Made by a program: the position numbers and the translations under genes
Shown: positions 6,221 through 53,766 of the stretch, one piece after another
Position numbering within the stretch: the first letter of the stretch is position 1
Layout: the number at the start of each line of letters is the position of its first letter
The notes under the pieces: model-generated
Databases searched by the model: none
Seen by the model: the letters and a program-made list of their open reading frames with translations, nothing else
What the model was told of the DNA's origin: nothing
NCBI GenBank assembly: GCA_963706285.1
Contig: CAVPLU010000010.1
Location: forward strand, 96,001 to 160,000
Source of the DNA: Candidatus Bathyarchaeota archaeon
Lineage (GTDB): Archaea > Thermoproteota > Bathyarchaeia > 40CM-2-53-6
DNA length: 64,000 nucleotides
Direction of reading: 5' to 3'

Positions 6221-6317
6221 GGGCCGGTAGTTCAGCTGGTTAGAAAGCCCAAAGCTTGGCTTGAACGTCGGCTTTACACGCCGAAGGTCGCCGGTTCGAT
6301 CCCGGTCCGGCCCACCA
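6221..6317 (+). tRNA. trnV: tRNA-Val(TAC) with 20-nt non-canonical intron (6244-6263, position 22/23) and encoded CCA
   Basis: Acceptor GGGCCGG/CCGGCCC, anticodon arm TCGGC-TTTACAC-GCCGA, T-arm GCCGG-TTCGATC-CCGGT; removing the insert restores D-stem GTTC/GAAC. Confidence 0.92.
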
Positions 6318-8987: not shown

Positions 8988-9529
8988 AGAGCTTGTGTCC
9001 ACAGAAGATCACTCATCCAGATGGTTCAAACTTAGATGCACGCACCTAGGAACCTCCACGAAAGACCTAACACTAACCATAGCGCCATTACTTGTGGCGA
9101 TTTGTTTCCCTCGGCCACAGGTCTAGCACTTGGAGTGTCAGGGTCAGAAACTCAAGAGTCATCTGATGGGACTGGGAGTTCCATCCGAGATCATTAGATG
9201 ACCGCTTCCTAAGTTGCACTAAAGATGCGGGTACTAACTTCTGGATTCACACACATTGTGTTAGAGAGGCAAGCTGTCGTTGTGCAGGTTTCTACCTGTG
9301 TCCCAATTGTGAAAGAGACGCCAAACCATGGAAAGCCACGGCAAGTGATTCGACTCGGCAGCTTCAACTACCGAAAAGTATGACACGCGATTAACACGGA
9401 AGTGTAGACTCTCCCTGAGAATCAGGGTCATCTGAGCACGTAGCTAAGAATCCCACTTCGTTTGACGCGCTTGGTTTCAGAATCGTTATCCATCAGCTCA
9501 GCATAATGAATCTTGTAGGCGATTTCAGG

Positions 9530-42691: not shown

Positions 42692-43096
42692 TTATGTGGA
42701 CTGCAACTCCTGCAATAGTTCCACTACGCGCTCGTGAATGGTATCTCGTATTGATCGGATCTCACCCAGCGTCTTTCCTTTTGGATCTTCAATTCCCCAA
42801 TCCTTGATCTTGGGCAGGAATTTCGCGGGGCAAAAATCTGATCCCTCACATCCCATCGTTATGATCTTCTCAGCCTTCGTGATCATTTCTGTTGAAACGA
42901 GTTTCGGTTTGCTGTTGCTTGCGTCAATTCCGATCTCTCTGAGAGCTTGCACGACGAGCGGATTGACCTCGCTGGCTGGTTTTGTTCCTGCGCTGATTGC
43001 TTGAAAACCATCGGGTTTGAGCTTGTTGAAGATGGCTTCGGCCATCTGGCTTCTGCCCGCATTTCCGACGCAAACGAAGAGAACGGTTCGAGTCAA
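42692..43096 (-). CDS. arsC: Arsenate reductase / LMW-PTP family
   Basis: FVCVGNAGRSQMAE, SAGTKP, ITMGC...CP, DWGIEDP. Confidence 0.9.
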   Translation of the reverse strand: MTRTVLFVCVGNAGRSQMAEAIFNKLKPDGFQAISAGTKPASEVNPLVVQALREIGIDASNSKPKLVSTEMITKAEKIITMGCEGSDFCPAKFLPKIKDWGIEDPKGKTLGEIRSIRDTIHERVVELLQELQST

Positions 43097-43099
43097 GAT

Positions 43100-43682
43100 C
43101 CCTCACGCCTATGGGGTATACTTGAAGCTAGGTTACGCGATCGCAGACATAAAACGATCAATCGAGCTTGGATTCAGAGGCTTCTTAGTCGTTGACGAAG
43201 GCCTCCTTTGGGCACTCAACGAACTCCGCAAAATCGGCGAGATCCCCAAGGATGTGAAGTTCAAAGTCTCGATCTTGGCGGGCCACGCGAACCCGGCCGG
43301 AGCAAAAGTGGTGGAGAGTCTCGGCGCAGACACACTAAACCCAGTAGCGGATCTCAGCCTGCCACAACTTGCAGCCATCCGAGCCGCCGTCAACATACCC
43401 GTTGACATTCATGTCTACATGCTCGATTCATTCGGCGGGTTCAATCGATTCTACGAATGCCCCGAACTCAGTCGAATAACCGCACCATGCTACTTCAAGA
43501 TCGAGCCGGGGACAGGCTTCGGAGCGATGTACAAGCCTTGGGTTTCACCTGAAAGCCATGCATTCTCCGCCAGAGAGAAAGTCAAACACGCAGAAATCAT
43601 CAAAGAACTAGTCCAGAAACACTACCCCGAAGCCAAACTCTCAGAAAGAGGAACGAAAGACCTCGCAATACCACAACCCTAG
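43100..43682 (+). pseudogene. 5'-truncated U32-peptidase-like (TIM barrel) protein
   Basis: ELGFRGFLVVDEGLL...KVSILAGHANP...LGADTLNP..DLSLPQLAAIR...PVDIH; no room for the N-terminal part before the arsC start. Confidence 0.6.
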
Positions 43683-43939
43683 ATTCACTATTGTTCAGAC
43701 CATGTTACGCTAACTCAAAGACACAGAGAAGTCAGTTCAAATTCAGGCGCTCGCACCACGATACACACACAAATCAACTCCAATGACGGTTCAATTTACG
43801 ACGCCCGCACCAAGCGTACCGCGACGACGAAAAACGCCCCTGCTCTCCTATGAGGGTTCAAACTTGAATGCCCCACCAAGAAGCACAACGACGTTTCTTC
43901 CATGGCAAACGACAAATCAAGGGTCAGCGCTTCAGAAAT

Positions 43940-44390
43940 ATGGGACTTGCATTGCACAGTCTGCGGAAGATTGGGGGCATCCCTTTTGTTATTATAATAA
44001 ATGCGATCTACGTTCTCGGGAAGTATTGTCATCTCTGCTCTGGGCTCTTTCTCGCCACGACTTTTCTTGTTGCATCAGTTCTTGGCCTAGCAATGGGATT
44101 TGCCTATTTTGCGACTAGCTATTCCAGCAGGAGAGGGGCGGAGCCCAAACCACTGGCCGATTCCAAGAATACAGTGCTGAATCCGGGGAGATTGTCAGAG
44201 AATCATCATTAGGGCGGCGCTTACAAGCACGGAGTCTTTAGGCAGCGTCCTAGTACTGACGATTCCATTCAGATCGGCTTTGGGCTTCAAACGAAGTATC
44301 TCTTCTATTGGAACAGTCTCGGTGGAATGTCGTTTTTGCCAGGCGTATTCGCGTTTGTCGAAGGCAATTTAAGGGCGAGGTAAACGCGTG
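43940..44390 (+). CDS. Small hypothetical membrane protein, frameshifted
   Basis: MGLALHSLRKIGGIPFVIIINAIYV...LVASVLGLAMGFAYF hydrophobic ORF. Confidence 0.35.
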
Positions 44391-44415
44391 TCGGGATGGA
44401 CTGGGACGTGGAAAC

Positions 44416-44647
44416 ATGAATTCGTGCTAATGCTTGAGTTCCTTAGGACTTTCATGTGGGGAATACTCGCTTTGGTCGTTGGAGGCTTGCCCGTCAAGTA
44501 TGGAATGGTCTATCCCTATTGGCAGGAGAGTTGTTCTTCGTGGGATATCTGGTTCTGGGATACGGAGCGCTCGTGCTTCTTCCTGTTACGGCCGCGCTAT
44601 TCGAGTTGATTCCGAAAATTCGGGAGTCGGAAACAGGTTTCGGGTGA
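44416..44647 (+). CDS. Small hypothetical membrane protein, frameshifted
   Basis: MLEFLRTFMWGILALVVGG / GELFFVGYLVLGYGALVLLPVTAALFELIPK in two frames. Confidence 0.35.
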
Positions 44648-44959
44648 ACTAGGTTGATTCCGATTGACGACCAACCTGCAAGATCCACGAATTCACGATT
44701 GAGTTGATACGAAATTTCTGATTGATACTCTTCTCACAGATGTCCCTTACCCAAATTTGGGCTCCATGGAAAGGCGTTCGTCGTCGTCGCGCACCAAGTG
44801 TACCACACACAAGGCCAAGAACGACAGACGCGCAACAGTTCAAATTGTGACGATCGCACGAAGGGACGCACGCGATCGGGGTTCTGGCGATTATACGTTG
44901 TTCCCCATGCGGAACACAAGAGGCTTCCTCATCGCGTAGCAAAATGGAAAAGATACGCA

Positions 44960-45641
44960 ATGGACCACGGGACAAAGAGAACGCTGTCCGAGTCTGTGAA
45001 GGTTCTTATTAGCTGAATTCTAGCCTTCTCAACGGAACGCCTTGTCGCGCCGTAATTGGTTTCTGGGGGCCATTGCTGTTCTGCTCGTCGGTTGGAAGAG
45101 ATGCAGATTTCCGAAAATCGATTAGAGTTGAAACGACTGTCTTTGGTTATGGTAGTTTTACTATTTGGCGTCTCTTGGTGCTTTCATTTCCCGACATTAC
45201 GAGTTCGGTGGGCTCCGGCGGGTTTGGGTTTGAGCGAGAGGTAGATGAGCTGACTCGGAAACTCGGTACTGCTACATCGTTGCTCAAAGACTCCTGGGTC
45301 CTAGTGAAAGAGCAGAGACAGCTGAAGGCACGACAGAACTTGTACATGAACCAGACCCCCGTGGTGTATTGTTTACGATACTAGTAGAAATTGAACGTGC
45401 AATGGCAAAGATTGGCTGGGATGCGCAGAAGCCTGTACAACGGCGCATGGGTTTCGGCAATTTGATTCGATTACTATCATCGAAGGGGATATTGGTACGA
45501 GATCTCCAAGAAGCCCTAGAATTTCTGAGGAACATTAGGAATTCTGCGTTCCACGGGGAGTACGCTGACCGAAAGTCAGACAGGAGCCGCGCTGGATCTC
45601 GCGACTGTTGTTATTGGGAGATTAGAAGCAAAAGAGGCTGA
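44960..45641 (+). pseudogene. Membrane-anchored HEPN-like (Rx4H) protein, frameshifted
   Basis: TM segment and SVGSGGFGFEREV linker, then FGNLIRLLSSKGIL...LEFLRNIRNSAFHG. Confidence 0.55.
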
Positions 45642-47429
45642 AGGGGCAAGACCATAGTTACACGTGGACTATAACATTTTTAGTTCTTCAAGTACCTTCT
45701 GTAATTTTAGCCTTACGTCATACCGGACAGGGATACTTGTATTTTCCCTTCCTCAGGGGAGACTTGCGTTTGGTTTTTCCATGTGACGAGAGGACATCGG
45801 CGATCCAACTCGGACTTGACATGTTTTCCATATTTCTTCTTGTAAAGATCAGGTGCTTCTGATATGTCATGGCGTCAAACGGTCAAGTGTGCGGATTAGA
45901 ATTAGCTTGCCGAAGTCGTCCGGCAAATGGGTTTTCTAACGTGCTGAGTCTGTAATAGCATAGCCGCAACCCGAATAATATTGGGGCTGGGGGAATCGGT
46001 TCTATTTCGGGGGCTAACCGATTTTAGCCTGAAGGCGCAGCATATGGTTCGAGATTCCTAATGTTTGACAAGGTCGTACGTTAGAGATCTTCTCTTCCTC
46101 TGTGATCGAGTAAGACCTGGCTATTCTCAACAGATAGGAGTTTGTCGGATAGCTTCTTTGAATGCCCAGTCGTCAATCTTGTTGGATTCGTGCGCGCTAG
46201 CCACGCGTGATTCCGGATGCAACCGGGAATTTGTGGCTTCGATCACATAATTCCGGTGGTCCAAGAGAGGCTTCAGATACTTCAAATCGTTTGCGTCCGT
46301 TAGTTTCGTCATGGTTCGGTGCTGTCTAACAACAGAGCACATCCAGCAGCCAAATCTCATGTCATTGAAATTGCGATAGATTTCTACAGGTTCAGCGTTG
46401 GATAACCTTTCGCAGGCAGAACAAATCTCAAAAAGTCACAGAAATCACGTCTGCAACAATCCTACAATCGGCAGCGGCAAAAGATGATGCCATAGCGCTT
46501 TGCTCTGCCAAAACCAGACGCCCTGACGAGTTGGCTCGCATCAACGCAGTGCATGACAAACTCGAAGCTGTCTGTCTCGTTGTTTTAGACTCTCGGAGCA
46601 ATCTGACGCCAGTCAGGACACAAGTTCTTCTTGGATCTTCCTGTCCCATGAACCTTCCTTGACGGAAGTAATTTTCAAACGCCTAGTGCACGCAGCGGAA
46701 TCGCTGATGCGGAGGTGGATATCGCTTTCCCGAGCAGAAGGAACCAAAATCCTTCTCTGACATCTGGCCTAACAATGTCCTGCACTTCTTTCGGGGAAGC
46801 TGTTCGGCATGTGCGATATTGCTGAGCCGTTGAAGGATTGGAGAGCATGCGTCTTGTAGGATAGGTAATTTCCAACAAAGTATCGCAGTAGATTGTTTCC
46901 ACCGATCCGTATTCAGCTCTCCAGATCTGACTAATTTAGGGGAGAGCCACTGTCGCGGTGCGTATTGCGTGCAAGAAAGGCAATTACCGATTTGTCTATC
47001 CCTTTAGAAAGTAGGCGCTTTAGGGACGACCGTGATTCCTCGAATCTTGAATCAAGTTTAGAACATAGCCAGCGCTCGTATCAGCATTGACTGGATGAGC
47101 TCTGGACAGCAGTCTAGCAGGCAATGCGCGCGAATCGCGGTCGCCGGGGACATACAAGGACAATGGGCCAGCGAGCTCGTTAAGGATCCTCTTAGAACTC
47201 CCTCTTGGAATGAGTGATATCCGAACAGTAGAGTCGAAACGTATTCAAAAATAGCCCTCGGAGGGTGTAGGCTTGTCTTGAATTTGCTCTGACACGGTCT
47301 GTCAGTCAAAGCCGAGGATCAGTTGAGGTGACATGCAAGGATATTTCTCGGTTTTATCAAGGTCTTACAAGCTCCACTCGGCAGGCCTAATATGATTGGA
47401 TTGCAGTCTGAGCGAATTCAACTGCTGCT

Positions 47430-48060
47430 GGGCGGGATCCCATTGGTCTGCAAGTGTGGAGTGATTGTCACCAACCTCCCACGTCTGGAGTTATCGATGC
47501 CATTGCAAGTCTCGCGCTGTGCCATAGTTAGCTTGAATGGAATGCAGTTCGAGTGATGCCGACAGAGGGCGTATGGTAAGAAGCGCAGAGTGTGGAGCGT
47601 GCTCTTGTCGATGCCTACCGCGCCCTTCGCTTTTTCAAGAAGGTTAAAAGATTATGGAATTCTGCGGTTAGACGCATTGGTCAAACCAGAGATTCAAAGT
47701 AATGTCCCGGAGTCCAGCGCTTGCTTAGAGGAAGGTACCATCGCTCTAAACGGCAGGGCATTTCGGGGAGCCGCTGTAATGGCCCGAGCGGCGCTCGAAG
47801 TTTGCCTAGAGTGGGGGGATTCACAAAACAAAACTTGGCGGCAGCAGAGATGATGCTGTTACGGCGAAAGCACTAACGGCTTATGACAAGATAAAAGCGA
47901 GCAATTCGCGCCTAATTGGCAATTTTGGTGCCCATGGAACGTGTGCGTCATATGCTCCTGGAGATGGTTTAGAATGAAGAGAGCGAGGCAAAGTTCTCTC
48001 TTGAACTCTCCAGTCAACTAGTGCAGATCCTCATAAAGTGGAAGACATCCAAAGTCGGTG
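47430..48060 (+). pseudogene. DUF4145 (HEPN-like) protein, frameshifted
   Basis: VPES..CLEEGTIAL...AFRGAAVMARAALEVCL then SRLIGNFGAHG. Confidence 0.6.
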
Positions 48061-48107
48061 TTCCCTCATAATGCACTCCAAGCAGGGTTCGATCAAAATC
48101 GTGGAAG

Positions 48108-49650
48108 ATGCAGATTCAGAATATGCTGGGCAATCCAGATCGAGCCGAAATATACTCCATACCCGATGAAGGTTTCAGGAAAGGTTGTAAAACAGATAAG
48201 CACCGGTTATCCTTATCGTTCACGTGGAAACGTTCTGATAGAACTCGTAAGTAATTCGTTTGTGCGGATGCATCATTTGCGGCAATCAATACGAATCCTC
48301 CGAATTTCAAGTCATTCTCAATATTCGACGATGGTCAAGGCATGTCCGCAACCGAGTTTACGATAAGGATGCAACGGATTGGTGCTAGCGAAAAACTTCC
48401 GGTAGAAGTGACACCAAAAGGACGACCCATCATTGGTAGGATAGGGATAAGGTCGACGAGCAGTTGGCCATGTTTCACAAAGATTTCGCGTCATTTCAGC
48501 ACGGGCCCAAGATGAACAAGGGTTTGAAGCCAAGGTAGATATGAGTCGTCTCTTTGGAGTCGGAGCCGAGTCACTCCCCATGGAAGAGCTTACCGCTGGC
48601 ACGGTCCAGGTTCGAATGTATAGGAAACCCAAAGACGAGCAATACACATTAGTCGAAGTTGAAAGCACATCGAACGTGTTTAGACAACTACTGGCTGAAA
48701 AACACAAAAAACGCTATAGGGGGTTTGAAAAGAAGCCCCCTGCATCAATACATGGACTTTGTCAATTTCGTTCAGCACAAAGCAAAACGAATTTCTCAGC
48801 TATCCGGCTCACGATCAAACCCTATGGGAACTTGGGCTTCTGACACCAGTTCCGTACCTTGAAGGGGAGCCTGTCCGAAATGATTCAGAAATGATCTCCT
48901 CATTAGAGAAACGGCTTCTATCCTATCAATTCAGTTTATACATTGATGATGTTGAAATCAGGAAACCAATCATGCTTCCTCCCTCAACAGGAGAAGTACA
49001 CGATTACGGTGTTTACCCAATACGGATAAATGAAGAAAGTGAGGAGGGCCCGATTGAGGCTACAGGATATCTCTACCATCAAAATGTGCGTGTGGTCCCT
49101 GCAGAGCTGAGAGGGCTCCTTCCACGAATGAAAAATGTTGGAATTGGGTTACCATATCTCAACGTATTTAGGATTCTGCACGAGAGTCCGATCATAACCT
49201 TCAAGTTTGTGGCGAACTATACATCGATAAAGGCTGGATGATGGACTAAACTCGATCGAAACAGTTTCTTTCAGGCATCACCGTCATTTCAGAAACTGAA
49301 AGAAGCGCTCGAGAGAATATTGCGAGAAGAGAAGATTACTGCAAACATGAAACGACGACAAAGAGAAAGTAGAGCCAGCAGGAACACATGTCACGAGACT
49401 AGGGCCCTTGTAGCTTACGAGAGCCGCGGTGGAATTTGAATCGCCTTTCTCGTAGCGTGAACGTCGAATTATCACTGTCTCATGACATGCCCAAGAACCA
49501 GCGGCTCAAATGCCCGAAGGCGTAGCTTGTATTTCGAGCTTTCAAGGAAGAGCGGGGACGCAAAGGCCGCGTTTTACAGACTCCTTCAAGGTTTCCTTGG
49601 CGATCACCTAAAGAAGAATGAGTAGAAAGCCTTGACAGGTTCTGAAGAAT
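48108..49650 (+). pseudogene. GHKL/MORC-like ATPase of the type found in restriction and defence loci, frameshifted
   Basis: Fragments ELVSNSF, FDDGQGMS, TPKGRPIIGRIG, IEATGYLYHQ...ELRGLLPRMKNVGIG. Confidence 0.65.
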
Positions 49651-49789
49651 TGTAGGCAGACGTTTACTTGCGGTGCACTCCCAGCGGACTAACGCTCCAA
49701 TCGCTCGATTAGTGGTTATGTCGAGTCGTAGACAGCGCGTAGAGGGGTATGACAAATCTCTAACTTGTCATCCCTCACCTGACGCGAAG

Positions 49790-50240
49790 ATGGAGTACAA
49801 CGATTGAACCGTGTGATCCAAGCCTGGTGAAAGTCTAGGTTCATGAACTTCGACAGTCGTTTGATCTCTTCGAAGTCTTCCATTCCGACCTTTGTTCGTC
49901 CGCAGTACAGCGCGTGAGCTTGAACCAAAGCCCTCAACTGCTTGTTCTGAACCCTGTACTGAACGGTCGTCTCCGCTGTGGCAAAGCTTCTATTCTTCTG
50001 GCGATCTTGCCCGGAATCTCAACTTGCGTTCGTTTCCCTGTAATGATCTCAATCATCTTAGCTGGGAAGTCCTTGCGGATGTGTTCATGTATTCTCAGCT
50101 TCGTCGCTTCTGCGACGATGATGCTTCTGCCTGCGAATCCAATGCCTTTCCAATACTTCTCGCAGCCGCATGGGGCGTCAGAGAGACTTGGTCTAACAAC
50201 TGTAGGCTCGCCGATGCTGTGTACTCAGGAGTTCACTTTC
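49790..50240 (-). pseudogene. C-terminal fragment of an MCM-like/AAA+ protein
   Basis: YWKGIGFAGR...RIHEHIR...GFR..QLRALVQAHALYCGRTKVGMEDFEEIKRL resembles an AAA+ lid helix. Confidence 0.45.
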
Positions 50241-50400
50241 TAGATGTGCCACCGTCCCTGAAATCATGTGTGTGCAAAGCTCACAATCGTGGATACGCTT
50301 GGATCGAAACTGTCAAGCTAGAAGTGTGAGTAACTTGCGTCAGAATGCTTTTTCAATTCTTTTGTAATACTGTCGTGGCTCTTCATGGAGAAGATCTGAA

Positions 50401-51231
50401 ATGGATGCGCTTGTGACTGCTGGAGGAATCCCAGATCCGAATGAGTCTCTCTACGAGTACACTCAGGGGAAGCCAAAGGCGATGTTAGACATTTGCGGTA
50501 AGCCGATGGTACAGTGGGTGTTGAACGCTCTGGAAGGGGCCAAAACCGTAGATCGGATTGTCGTAGCCGGTTTGCCGCCGGACAACGGGGTGAGTTGTTC
50601 CAAGCCAAGCGCGTTTGTTCCCAACCAGGGAGGCCTCTTACAGAATGTCCGCGCAGGATTGAGAAGGCTCTTAGAAATCAACCCAACAGCTCACCACGTG
50701 CTTCTCGTGGCATCTGACATCCCCGCAATCACGTGCGACATGGTTGATTGGGTAGTAACCACCGCCATGAAGAATGATGAAGACGTGTTCTACAGCATAA
50801 TCGCGCGTCAGGTAATGGAGGCTCGCTTTCCGGGCTCTAAACGCTCCTTTCCATTTGAGTCCACCCATTTGCTGGGCAACTGCGGAGGCCAAATGCACGT
50901 AATCCGTATCACGATACTCAATGAAAACGACGAATTGTTGGAACGAATTGTGGCCGCGCGTAAGAGCACCTTGAAGAAGGCCGCTTTGATCCGCGACTAT
51001 TTCGGTTACAGTGGCTTAGTCTCAGTATTGCTTTCAACAGTTGATCTAGACGGAGCGGTCGAGAAAGTAACCAAACGTTTGCAGATGACCGGGAGGGCGG
51101 TTCTCTGTCCGTATGCAGAAGTTGGAATGGATGTGGATAAACCGCACCAACTTGAAATTGTACGAGCGGAGTTGGCACGGCGAGTATCTTCACGAGAGGG
51201 TGTATTGCAGACTTCAGCGCCAACCGTGTAG
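50401..51231 (+). CDS. MobA-like NTP transferase domain protein
   Basis: MDALVTAGG...PKAMLDICGKPMVQWV, ASDIP, GMDVDKP. Confidence 0.8.
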   Translation: MDALVTAGGIPDPNESLYEYTQGKPKAMLDICGKPMVQWVLNALEGAKTVDRIVVAGLPPDNGVSCSKPSAFVPNQGGLLQNVRAGLRRLLEINPTAHHVLLVASDIPAITCDMVDWVVTTAMKNDEDVFYSIIARQVMEARFPGSKRSFPFESTHLLGNCGGQMHVIRITILNENDELLERIVAARKSTLKKAALIRDYFGYSGLVSVLLSTVDLDGAVEKVTKRLQMTGRAVLCPYAEVGMDVDKPHQLEIVRAELARRVSSREGVLQTSAPTV

Positions 51232-51264
51232 CCCGATTTAATAGCGCACTAGTTCTTCACTTCT

Positions 51265-51621
51265 ATGATCGCAATGAGCCACTACAATTGGAGCAAGATC
51301 CCCGCAGAGAAGATAACCGATAAACTATCACGCAAGTTCATCTCCGGCAAGAGTATAACGCTCGCCCAATTCTCCTTCAAGAAGGATTGCACCGTTGTCG
51401 CGCATAGTCACAAGAGTGAGCAGATGACCTGCGTACTCAAAGGCGTTCTAAGGCTGCGTCTCCCCGACAGAGAAGTGACGCTAGGTGAGGGTGAGGTTCT
51501 TCACATCCCACCCGGAATCGAGCACAGTGCAGTAGCTCTAGAAGACACTTTAGTTCTGGATGTCTTCAGCCCGGTAAGAGAGGATTGGCTCAGCGGAGAA
51601 GATGCCTATCTCCGCAAATAG
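51265..51621 (+). CDS. Cupin-2 domain protein
   Basis: HSHKSEQ...IPPGIEH...LDVFSPVRED. Confidence 0.88.
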   Translation: MIAMSHYNWSKIPAEKITDKLSRKFISGKSITLAQFSFKKDCTVVAHSHKSEQMTCVLKGVLRLRLPDREVTLGEGEVLHIPPGIEHSAVALEDTLVLDVFSPVREDWLSGEDAYLRK

Positions 51622-51847
51622 GCCACAATTGCTCTAAGCAGGCTGCGGGTCTCACTCCGATTGTTGGCGGACACGGTGAAGATACCGGTGCGAGGCACGA
51701 CCGAGTCGACTGAGCGCCCGATTTGCTCGAGCAGATTTCGGCAGGGCAGCAGCCACCCGCGTAATAGCTCACCGTGTGCGTCACGCTTAGTGTGCAGCAC
51801 GGAATACCTGCCCAAATCGCGGCCTATTCATGCGAGCCCGTGAACCG

Positions 51848-52657
51848 CTACTTATTCTCTTGATCCGTCTTTGCCTGCTTCTGTGTCTGAGCGAAGCCAA
51901 CTGTTCCTAGTACGCCGCTGAATCCCATTTGGCTGACGATCTCGCTTGGGACGATGATGAATGTGCCCTTCTCCTTTACGGCTTCGTAGAGCATGTTCAT
52001 GGCTCGGAGTCGCATGGCTTCAGGATTTTTCTCGTAGACTCTGCTTGCTTCCTCGAACTTCTTAGAGATCTGTATCTCACTGTCACCCAGTGAGATTCTG
52101 GCTAGTCGTTCGCGTTCAGCTTGGGCTTGCCTGCTCATAGCGTCCTCTAGTGCGGTCGGTATCTTCACATCCTTGATTTCCACGGACTGCACTTCGATGC
52201 CCCAAGGTTCTGCCTTGCTCTCTATCGTTTTCTGTAGGATGGTGTCCAGCTGCAGCCTATCTGAGAGCATCGTCGCAAGTTCAGTTCTACCGATCGTGTC
52301 ACGAAGAGTGGTCATGGATGCTTTCAGTATGCTTCCTTGATAGTCCTGAACCGCCATTATGGTGTCCGAAGGGGTCTTGACACGCCAGAAGAGCACGGCG
52401 TCAACGAAGACGGGCACGTTATCTCTTGTCAACGACTGTTCAGCTGTGAATGTGGTTGTTCTGACACGTCCGTCAACGATTATGCGGTTCTCTATGAGAG
52501 GGATCAAATAGTATAGGCCGGCACCGTTCATTCTACTGTATTTACCTAATCGGAATATTACTGCGGTATCCCATTGACTATTGATCTTGATACCCGACAG
52601 AATCAAGAGTGCTACTATCAGCAGAACAAAGGGCGTAATGAAATCGGTCCAAACCAT
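51848..52657 (-). CDS. SPFH/stomatin (band 7) protein
   Basis: AVIFRLGK, LTRDNVPVFVDAV, WGIEVQSVEIKDV, AMSRQAQAERER. Confidence 0.9.
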   Translation of the reverse strand: MVWTDFITPFVLLIVALLILSGIKINSQWDTAVIFRLGKYSRMNGAGLYYLIPLIENRIIVDGRVRTTTFTAEQSLTRDNVPVFVDAVLFWRVKTPSDTIMAVQDYQGSILKASMTTLRDTIGRTELATMLSDRLQLDTILQKTIESKAEPWGIEVQSVEIKDVKIPTALEDAMSRQAQAERERLARISLGDSEIQISKKFEEASRVYEKNPEAMRLRAMNMLYEAVKEKGTFIIVPSEIVSQMGFSGVLGTVGFAQTQKQAKTDQENK

Positions 52658-52809
52658 ATCTTGTCGCCGCTCTTCTGACCATTACCGCGAGATATAGGTC
52701 ATTTCTAAGGTCTCTAGGGTTTCTTGGATCATCCAATCCATCCCAGGGATTGTCCTGTCAATTCTTGATTGCTCTATTCAAGGGATGAAGCGCATGCGTC
52801 TTTTCGACA

Positions 52810-53766
52810 CTAGTCTACATCCTGTCGTATACGTCGCACGAATGAATCAACAGACTCGGCAAAGGTTTCGCTTTGAATCTGTTTTCGTTTGACAATCAGG
52901 GATTCAACAACATTACAGCTCATCTTGGTGAGCTTACGCGTGAGGCTAGCTAGGAATCTTTGTTCGTCGAATCCTCCGCAACTCATGAACAGATAGAATC
53001 TGGGCTTATCGATGTTCCTCATCTTGTGAATGAATCTGTTGAGAGGTGGACAGCTTAAAGTCCACTTGGGAAACCCCAACAGAACCGCGTCATACTTGGA
53101 CAGGTCCATTTCCGCACCTGCTATGTCGACCTCAGAATTTGGGACGAATGAATATGCAAGCCAGTGAAGATACGATCTCTTGCGTGTCGGCACAATTTCC
53201 ACCGTCTCGACATCGTATCCTTGCAGCCTTTCCAACAAAGCTTCAGCGATGCGCTTGGTATCGCCTGTGTACGAGAAATACGCGACTAACAGTCTCGTCT
53301 GTCGTTTGAGGCTCACCTGCTTAGTCAACAAGAGTCTGTCGTCCCCGTTTGGAAACCAGTTCTTGTCAATCCGAGTGTCCGAGAATCCCATGGCGTGATA
53401 GAAACTTCGAGTTCTAGCATACGGCTCGTATTCTTCCGTGGGCGCAAGGGTCGACACTTGGAGCGATTGAATCCTCTGCTTTGCTAGCTCTTCCTCAATC
53501 GCTTCTACGAGTGCTCGACCTACGCCTTTTCGATGGATCTCCGGACGGACCGCAATCCAAGTCAGCTCCGCCGTCCTATCTTTGTCAGTCTGAAGATAGG
53601 TTGCAAAACCGACAACTTTCTTTTCTATTGCGACAAATCCATCTTGAGTTCGAACAGCTCGCGCAATCTCTTCTAATGCAGATTCGGTGAACCATTTCGG
53701 GTGGAGTGACCGTGCTATCTCCGCGATTGGCTCGTAATCCTCTGGGAGGATTCGCCTGGTCCGCAA
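52810..53766 (-). CDS. GNAT acetyltransferase-flavodoxin fusion
   Basis: WIAVRPEIHRKGVGRAL...FYHAMGF followed in frame by VAYFSYTGDTKRIAE...YDAVLLGFPKW. Confidence 0.7.
   Translation of the reverse strand: MRTRRILPEDYEPIAEIARSLHPKWFTESALEEIARAVRTQDGFVAIEKKVVGFATYLQTDKDRTAELTWIAVRPEIHRKGVGRALVEAIEEELAKQRIQSLQVSTLAPTEEYEPYARTRSFYHAMGFSDTRIDKNWFPNGDDRLLLTKQVSLKRQTRLLVAYFSYTGDTKRIAEALLERLQGYDVETVEIVPTRKRSYLHWLAYSFVPNSEVDIAGAEMDLSKYDAVLLGFPKWTLSCPPLNRFIHKMRNIDKPRFYLFMSCGGFDEQRFLASLTRKLTKMSCNVVESLIVKRKQIQSETFAESVDSFVRRIRQDVD

Follow-up and report, generated by a model that had tools for sequence, protein, structure and literature searches.

Probable stacked casposon insertion junctions bordering a strain-variable island in a Bathyarchaeia genome

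The machinery of CRISPR adaptation is proposed to descend from casposons, of which, to our knowledge, few natural populations have been described. According to the portions of the published accounts cited here, the casposons of Methanosarcina mazei generate 14-bp duplications starting with 5'-CGCA, the last 4 bp of a tRNA-Leu gene, and their integration requires the duplicated segment together with up to 30 bp of upstream tRNA sequence (PMC4779613, PMC6977970); mutation of CGCA, or of bp 12-17 upstream, abolishes activity, and mutation of the 4 bp before CGCA severely reduces it (PMC6977970). Tandem elements share one copy of the duplication, and solo termini are left after decay (PMC4779613, PMC6977970); experiments in vivo show that one empty site remains after excision, that artificial mini-casposons can be moved in trans, that tandem structures form where the original targets lie, and that a copy of the target can travel with an element to a new locus (PMC10359463). 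The present analysis concerns an array of short repeats, here called units, in a stretch of 64,000 nucleotides (the window) of a Candidatus Bathyarchaeota archaeon (assembly GCA_963706285.1, contig CAVPLU010000010.1, positions 96,001 to 160,000), whose genome is 89% complete and is designated G000; the repeats resemble tRNA 3' ends and had been taken, in the initial annotation, for a tRNA-anchored array of captured gene cassettes. We put at roughly 80% the probability that the array is instead a stack of casposon insertion junctions, composed of landing sites and leftover ends. This reading draws on the duplication and the ends of a mini-element within the array, on the elements encoding Cas1 that lie at units in relatives, on the spread of the unit family, and on the polymorphism of the island that the array borders.

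The assignment to a casposase follows from a 14-bp target duplication starting with CGCA combined with terminal inverted repeats, and in the window both are found around a segment of 970 bp located in the second unit (Table 1). The two copies of its duplication are the only CGCA-led 14-mers duplicated between 43.6 and 53 kb; the left inverted end, CGCGACGACGAAAAACGCC (43820-43838), directly follows the first copy, and the right arm, GGCGTTCGTCGTCGTCGCG (44773-44791), overlaps the second one with its final two bases, the resulting inverted repeat of 19 nt being 89% complementary. The segment is a non-autonomous element with inverted ends and a 14-bp duplication: its small open reading frames (ORFs) have no family matches and include no transposase, so that it must have been moved in trans. 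The earlier proposal of serial, site-specific capture at a tRNA-3'-end-like target survives as regards the serial process, the enzyme acting in trans and the strain-variable island, and fails as regards the anchoring tRNA, the type of recombinase and what the repeats are. The first 60-75 nt of the mini-element also occur at three other places of the genome with 77-79% identity, and a junction like that at 44790-44836 (a reverse CGTCGTCG terminus, the 14-bp segment and CACAC) is also present in the genomes G002 and G006. What had been listed as a fourth, partial copy of the repeat (44790-44817 by nhmmer, E 0.078) is the second copy of the duplication with an older terminus behind it; once the mini-element is taken out, units 1, 2 and 5 form a three-unit array with a short stub after each. 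On the mini-element reading, an allele lacking the 970 bp would hold a single copy of CGCACCAAGYGTAC. Contigs of four metagenomes (groundwater, sediment and wetland) cover the conserved gene and the units, and none covers 43891-44700; a contig of one of them (X1), joining 43841 to 44780, was considered as an empty or collapsed allele and set aside as too weak, one of its sides consisting of 20 letters at 85% likeness. No public sequencing run contained more than 15% of the sampled words.

Three parts can be distinguished in a unit, and each would have its own role in integration. The first, which imitates the 3'-terminal ~25 nt of a tRNA (a TTCAAAT T-loop, five variable nucleotides and YGCY), would act as the 'leader' for a Cas1-type casposase; the second, a 14-bp CGCA-led segment (CGCACCA followed by seven variable nucleotides), would be cut with a stagger and hence duplicated; the third would be the terminus of whichever element landed. 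Units 1 and 2 carry what appear to be stubs of the CACACACA type, and unit 2 would later have been hit by the 970-bp mini-element, of the TIR1 type. The conservation of TTCAAAT, YGCY and CGCA, but not of the five nucleotides in between, mirrors the positions needed by the M. mazei enzyme, and the casposase may accordingly recognise the TTCAAAT and CGCA parts. A duplication of about 14 bp led by CGCA was found in the window (13/14 identical), in the relatives' locus L053 (14/14, three copies) and in G000 at C3:30962/32597 (14/14); inverted repeats directly inside the duplications are present in the window and in loci L049 and L053; a Cas1-family casposase with a C-terminal extension, encoded within the element, is found in the relatives, whereas the window gave no cas1 and the rest of G000 relics only.

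Two complete elements encoding Cas1 were delimited in related genomes. Locus L049 (G100:C3, 2434-11428) reads, in order, a leader, the segment CTCACCAGCTAAAG, CGACGACGACGA, 8,980 bp including cas1, the reverse terminus and the 14-mer again; the duplication is identical at 14/14 positions, but begins with CTCA, and the ends match perfectly over 12 nt. In locus L053 (G066:C3, 6079-17058) the 14-mer CGCACCAGCATACC occurs three times, without any mismatch: an element of 10,965 bp, with perfect 16-nt ends (CGCCCCCGCCGCCGCC), contains cas1 and an HNH gene, and stands in tandem with an element of 5,604 bp whose perfect inverted ends measure 9 nt (CACACACAC), the third copy of the 14-mer being common to both. 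The idea that CACACACA might be the flank of an empty target was ruled out by this triple exact duplication, which identifies it as an element terminus. The distal ends of the Cas1 elements in three further loci (L047, L048 and L052) were not found inside the 20-kb loci. As for cargo, one of the two complete elements carries a SIR2-like protein and an ATPase with AAA and HTH domains, the other a TIR-domain protein, an HNH nuclease and a TPR protein.

The Cas1 proteins of the bounded elements are 402-414 aa long. For that of L049, the match to PDB 6OPM, in which the M. mazei casposase is bound to DNA (PMC6977970), covers residues 4-397 of 402 with an E value of 5.7e-72, compared to 4e-25 for the best CRISPR Cas1. 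When the full Cas1 of G009 was used as a query, relatives were found in 42 of the 105 genomes of the order, often in several copies (13 in G070) and many of them truncated, a pattern that fits a transposase. Past the cas1 3' end, at a distance of 0.25-6.8 kb, a unit pointing towards the gene is present in seven of the eight retrieved loci whose cas1 is full; G000 itself has five cas1 relics, three of which are within 4 kb of units. Cas1 matches (E up to 1e-10) are present in 8/12 genomes with the unit and in 6/29 without it, a comparison in which related genomes are not independent.

The array is the left edge of an insertion hotspot. Homology to six sister genomes ends at 43681-43705 and resumes at 52837-52940; in three of them (G005, G003 and G009) a gap of 133-201 nt separates the genes corresponding to those that end at 43682 and 52810, so that ~9.1 kb are absent. 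In two others (G004 and G008) the spot is occupied by different islands, which measure 6.4 and 14.9 kb and bear units that face inward from the opposite side, and the contig of G002 terminates within an island of its own at this locus. The sequence CGCTAACTCAAAGA at 43708-43721, where the homology to G008 ends, may, speculatively, be a former pseudo-target. The rest of the island would represent decayed casposon cargo.

The unit itself was sought in the window with the pattern TTCAAWT-N5-YGCYCGCACCA, at up to three mismatches and with 100 shuffles as the control, and with an nhmmer profile built from the 16 exact copies of this genome. The pattern gave five matches against 0.39 expected, a number reached by none of the 100 shuffles, which bears out the enrichment over shuffled sequence that had been proposed as a check: two matches are exact (43736-43758 and 43790-43812), one has two mismatches (44839-44861), and the remaining two are accounted for by a genuine tRNA (58737) and a degenerate copy (9025). 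To these nhmmer adds a weak copy, one base shorter, at 43841-43881 (E 0.035). The three tandem copies are spaced 54 and 67 nt from start to start. Out of up to seven copies originally counted five hold, and no other is found between 44.9 and 46.7 kb; specifically, neither nhmmer (E up to 1) nor the pattern (three mismatches or fewer) detects a copy from 44,900 to 46,697, and what lies near 46,670, where further copies among genes had been placed, is a broken minus-strand DndC-like gene. Exact tRNA geometry (a T-loop of 7 nt, then 5, then 7, A and CCA), attributed at first to three copies, applies to those at 43736 and 43790; the copy at 44839 ends in CGCACGA instead of ACCA. The downstream tails said to be common to the copies, AGYGTACC and ACACACAA, are indeed present. 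The tRNA-tail-like repeats are thus real, but they do not form a local tRNA-anchored array. A lone degenerate unit, TTCAAACTTAGATGCACGCACCT, is located in intergenic sequence at window positions 9025-9047, with three mismatches, an nhmmer E value of 0.065 and no recognisable terminus behind it.

Outside the window, the exact pattern occurs 16 times in G000 (reversed pattern, 0), and nhmmer gives 46 matches at E<0.01, clustered in few regions; the family as a whole occupies at least eight contigs. A search of 41 genomes in total recovered the exact pattern in 12 of them, G000 included (reversed control 0 everywhere). Besides G000, it is present within the genus in 7/9 genomes (up to 43 copies); a second genus accounts for three genomes out of five, and another family for one. 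The number of copies within one genus varies from 0 to 43. The genome G034, from another family of the order, has 12 near-identical units, mostly TTCAAATTTGGGTGCTCGCACCA, and its Cas1 matches are weak fragments only, which suggests that the arrival was recent and horizontal, with a burst of a single element type. At least three terminus types are found at one and the same target: CGACGACG ('TIR1'), CGCCCCCGCC ('TIR2') and CACACACA ('TIR3'). The last is the commonest tail of units in G000, standing behind the 14-bp segment in 27/46 nhmmer matches, a count in which some units figure twice as neighbouring matches. A survey anchored solely on the junction CGCACCA-N6-8-CACACA returned 29 sites (reversed control 0); upstream of it lies a leader in 20, a reversed terminus of the CACACA type (the GGTGGTG variant included) in six, a reversed CGACGACG terminus in one and other sequence in two, and these are the classes expected from insertion and re-insertion at one target. 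A search for duplication pairs with 87 queries gave seven pairs against ~0.56 expected by chance (our own estimate), among them the identical pair at C3:30962/32597 mentioned above. Another pair, C3:155201/147064, beside a real tRNA, has no inverted ends and is probably due to chance, and a CGCCCCCGCC-like stretch behind a real tRNA at C4:369792 was rejected for want of a second copy of the duplication. One unit-bearing region of G000, C3:23.8-65 kb, begins 53 nt past a tRNA-Gly gene and contains a catalase-peroxidase, an MFS transporter, an aquaporin, flavodoxins, and fragments of KARI and CorA, that is, accessory and partly truncated genes.

The abundance of free-standing targets could be related to the structure of the element ends. 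A CGACGACG terminus is followed after 8-38 nt by GGTTCAAWT, an arrangement that the degenerate unit within the mini-element shares, 35 times, in 8/10 genomes of the genus (reversed control 0), and in at least two places (C14:93363-93399 and C3:32611-32705) the internal unit is itself occupied by another such end; this nested insertion into an element-borne copy of the target supports the tentative proposal, to which we give somewhat less than an even chance, that in many elements a functional copy of the site targeted by their own casposase sits some dozens of bases in from either end, each insertion planting a new landing pad. Nested insertions would then arise from inward-pointing copies of the target, and units would spread together with elements. 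Such a portable target, if true, would explain why a mimic of a tRNA tail is found at dozens of intergenic places, the nesting into direct arrays of ~55-nt period, and the assembly of variable gene islands by polymerase-less Cas1 transposons; it would also offer a site-specific transposon a simple way to escape one tRNA gene and to build arrays.

Several observations weigh against the interpretation of the array as a stack of casposon junctions. The empty sites of G005, G003 and G009 contain no unit at nhmmer E values up to 0.1, which leaves the arrival of the first unit unexplained, and at the right edge of the 9.1-kb island neither a terminus nor a duplication was found. No intact casposase was found in G000, where the cas1 relics all lie outside the window; recent movement would thus need an enzyme encoded in the unassembled 11% of the genome, or one from the past. 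PolB is absent from the two complete Cas1 elements (9 and 12 ORFs, searched with Pfam), the longest ORF of which has 487 aa; since a gene that defines casposons is missing, the elements are filed as casposase-driven and self-synthesis is not claimed for them. No parent tRNA with a GCGRGCR stem was found in G000, a genome 89% complete in which the detection of intron-rich tRNAs is poor. A consensus is common to the 14-bp segments, so that unrelated units can nearly match, and two of the seven duplication pairs link separate leader-bearing units; the CACACACA terminus consists of only 9 nt of simple sequence; and the complete elements of L049 and L053 have no internal units, so that a portable target would apply to some element types only.

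The best surviving alternative, which we nevertheless consider improbable, is that the unit is a small repeat similar to a bacterial non-coding miniature inverted-repeat transposable element or repetitive extragenic palindrome (REP), moved by some other transposase, and that its link to Cas1 is coincidental. The ~46 copies in a genome devoid of an intact cas1, the presence of units in G002 and G005, where no Cas1 match is found at E up to 1e-10, and the many copies that are short and in tandem are all compatible with such a repeat; they are countered by the full cas1 genes within unit-bounded elements, by the orientation of the unit towards the cas1 3' end in seven of eight loci, and by the CGCA-led 14-bp duplication combined with an upstream tRNA-like sequence, which are specific traits of the casposases in the published accounts. 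A hairpin of the REP kind, with the five variable nucleotides pairing with GCYCG, was judged irregular by eye and dropped.

Still less probable, and already largely refuted here, is an array of att sites resembling those of integrons or tycheposons, in which every integration by a tyrosine (or serine) recombinase would copy the 3' end of a tRNA. It would account for the units with exact tRNA 3'-end geometry, for the direct repeats bordering a variable island and for the other G000 island that starts 53 nt after the tRNA-Gly gene; against it, the delimited elements are bounded by inverted ends, and their 14-bp duplications begin past the tRNA-like part and are not direct repeats of att length. 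G000, at 89% completeness, gave no match to the tyrosine recombinase family PF00589 at E up to 0.01; the signatures are those of a Cas1 casposase. Nor do the units descend from one tRNA, since they differ at 5+7 variable positions; rather than att duplications of a single tRNA they are target-plus-terminus junctions distributed over at least eight contigs and over many genomes. The integron form of this alternative is contradicted by the structure of the units, direct repeats without attC-like paired arms, and by that of the supposed cassettes, one of which is a transposon with inverted ends, the small ORFs having no family support beyond a weak DUF4145 match.

As to a parent tRNA, the one starting with GCGGGCG that had been postulated was not found, nor was any tRNA at the locus: ARAGORN and Rfam place tRNAs in the window at 6221 and 58667 only, and the possibility that the units are themselves tRNA or split tRNA genes was rejected after ARAGORN with introns, Rfam and a scan for acceptor complements yielded no cloverleaf at any unit. 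The leader has the T-loop, T-stem, acceptor and CCA geometry of a tRNA and lacks a 5' acceptor strand within 400 nt upstream. In a genome-wide scan from T-loop to CCA, in which real tRNAs were those with a complementary 5' acceptor strand within 400 nt, ~30 orphans without such a strand share the consensus and the tail of the unit; the closest real tRNA 3' ends (...CGGCCGCACCA, ...CCCCCGCACCA and ...CTCCCGCACCA) have no recognisable terminus behind them. The introns in the tRNA genes of G000 are long and multiple, ARAGORN and Rfam recover only 17-26 of them, and some of the anticodons assigned by ARAGORN look unreliable ('Pyl', a 1.4-kb 'Ile'). A ~60-nt copy of a Leu-like tRNA 3' end with its flank is present at G000:C8:2404, 48 kb upstream of the intact gene (C8:50259) and ~100 nt from a unit at C8:2290; it may be the trace of another kind of integration or of a rearrangement.

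The least probable alternative is a regulatory or RNA element preceding accessory genes (a promoter with a CA-rich leader, or a small tRNA-like RNA), since its intergenic position and the ATG found 10-40 nt behind some copies (for example C9:19272) are outweighed by the want of a convincing downstream ORF for most copies and of any Rfam or tRNA match at the units, by a number of copies within one genus that fits a mobile element and not a regulon, and by the duplications and inverted ends, which it leaves unexplained. The promoter idea was dropped because the downstream ORFs are inconsistent. A CRISPR array was likewise rejected: the whole ~55-nt period is repeated including the leader-like part, there are only three units, and no intact cas genes were found in the window.

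Table 1. Units, element parts and island features, in window positions
Feature	Position	Strand	Basis or remark
Unit 1: mimic AG-TTCAAAT-TCAGG-CGCT and CGCA-led segment CGCACCACGATA, running into CACACACA	43734..43765	+	Exact pattern; nhmmer E 2.5e-9
Stub of CACACACA-type ('TIR3') terminus between units 1 and 2	43764..43787	+	
Unit 2, leader GG-TTCAATT-TACGA-CGCC	43788..43805	+	Exact pattern; nhmmer E 9.6e-11
Target-site duplication, copy 1, CGCACCAAGCGTAC	43806..43819	+	Pairs with 44790-44803, 13/14 identical
Probable mini-casposon, non-autonomous, 970 bp	43820..44789	+	Inverted ends and target duplication
Degenerate target-like unit within the mini-element (copy 3 of the initial annotation)	43855..43885	+	37 nt from the left terminus; nhmmer E 0.035
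Target-site duplication, copy 2, CGCACCAAGTGTAC	44790..44803	+	Core of the partial 'copy 4' of the initial annotation
Stub of older CACACACA-type terminus, beginning CACACACAAGG	44804..44836	+	Sequence; would have followed unit 2 before the mini-element inserted
Unit 5, degenerate: AG-TTCAAAT-TGTGA-CGAT and CGCACGAAGGGACG	44837..44868	+	2 mismatches; nhmmer E 0.0038
Broken ATPase-like gene remnant	49827..50179	-	tblastn with the 265-aa L048:6264-7061, 52-56% identity, two frames, E 3e-22 and 7e-13
Strain-specific island, 9.1 kb	43706..52836	.	Flanked by two conserved genes that converge; left edge formed by the unit array

Most ORFs of the island gave nothing with PADLOC or Pfam; intact genes for an SPFH protein, a nucleotidyltransferase and a cupin are present. 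The gene to which the ATPase-like remnant corresponds lies near cas1 in a locus of G070. The nucleotidyltransferase and cupin genes (50401-51621) have paralogues at G000:C16:82151-85573, with 68% and 76% DNA identity. On the minus strand a run of short ORFs extends over 45700-47310, within which 46127-46360 matches positions 250-299 of 481 of DndC models (E 4.7e-10); this part of the island is probably a frameshifted gene of the DndC/PAPS-reductase type, which would explain its lack of long ORFs. A reverse TGTGTGTG at 50267-50274 was considered as the far end of a CACACACA-type element starting at 44804 and rejected, there being no matching duplication and an 8-mer not being rare by chance. 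Just outside the island, the phosphatase gene (42692-43096) and the gene for a 221-aa protein (43017-43682) overlap in the window and are ~2 kb apart in G008:C7 and G004:C21, a difference in spacing that is a second indel at the locus.

In the library searched, no paper combines 'casposon' with 'Bathyarchaeia' and one combines 'casposon' with 'Bathyarchaeota'; natural mini-casposons (searched as 'casposon' with 'non-autonomous' or 'miniature') did not appear among the matches listed, the best 15 of 728. What an archaeal genus and its neighbours present here is the combination of dozens of target mimics per genome, at least three element types on one target and natural miniature elements, together with polymerase-less Cas1 elements carrying cargo of the SIR2, TIR and ATPase types. 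The variable islands seem to be enlarged by successive landings at one kind of site, and the units provide a ready marker of mobile islands in the genomes of Bathyarchaeia, in which most cargo genes are unannotated.

Among known systems, the family-2 casposons of M. mazei (Krupovic et al. 2016, PMC4779613; Hickman et al. 2020, PMC6977970) share with the present elements, as far as those reports describe them, the 14-bp CGCA duplication at the 3' end of a sequence of tRNA-Leu type, a dependence, predicted for the present elements, on upstream tRNA sequence, and the tandem elements with one copy of the duplication in common; leftover termini without genes and mini-elements mobilised in trans, artificial in PMC10359463, are further likenesses (PMC4779613, PMC10359463), and 6OPM is the structure closest to the Cas1 of L049. 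In the present case, unlike in M. mazei, a free-standing mimic in dozens of copies takes the place of a tRNA gene as the target and also lies within many element ends; one target serves at least three terminus types that are unrelated, and the two complete elements have no PolB. AciBoo-C1 of Aciduliprofundum boonei resembles these elements in its site specificity for a tRNA 3' end, in its need for a leader-like upstream sequence and in its duplication of 14-15 bp, and differs in using a real tRNA-Pro gene in single copy, no portable target copies being described for it in the account cited (in PMC6977970). The system is of the casposase type, with the unusual traits of free-standing and apparently portable targets, several termini per target, natural mini-elements and complete elements without PolB. 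Integrons and the tycheposons of Prochlorococcus also give rise to variable islands of accessory genes by repeated site-specific insertion and leave partial tRNA repeats, but they rely on a tyrosine recombinase that acts through att/attC recombination, and are not known to have inverted ends or a constant 14-bp duplication. CRISPR arrays are similar in that an integrase of the Cas1 family duplicates a short target adjacent to a leader, its repeated use giving rise to direct arrays; in contrast to them, the segment duplicated here has 14 bp, a leader-like part is present in every unit, the inserts are transposon ends and not spacers, and neither Cas2 nor effector genes take part. If each insertion does plant a new target, these arrays of leader plus duplication, made by a Cas1 enzyme, would provide a present-day counterpart of the transition that has been proposed from casposons to CRISPR arrays.

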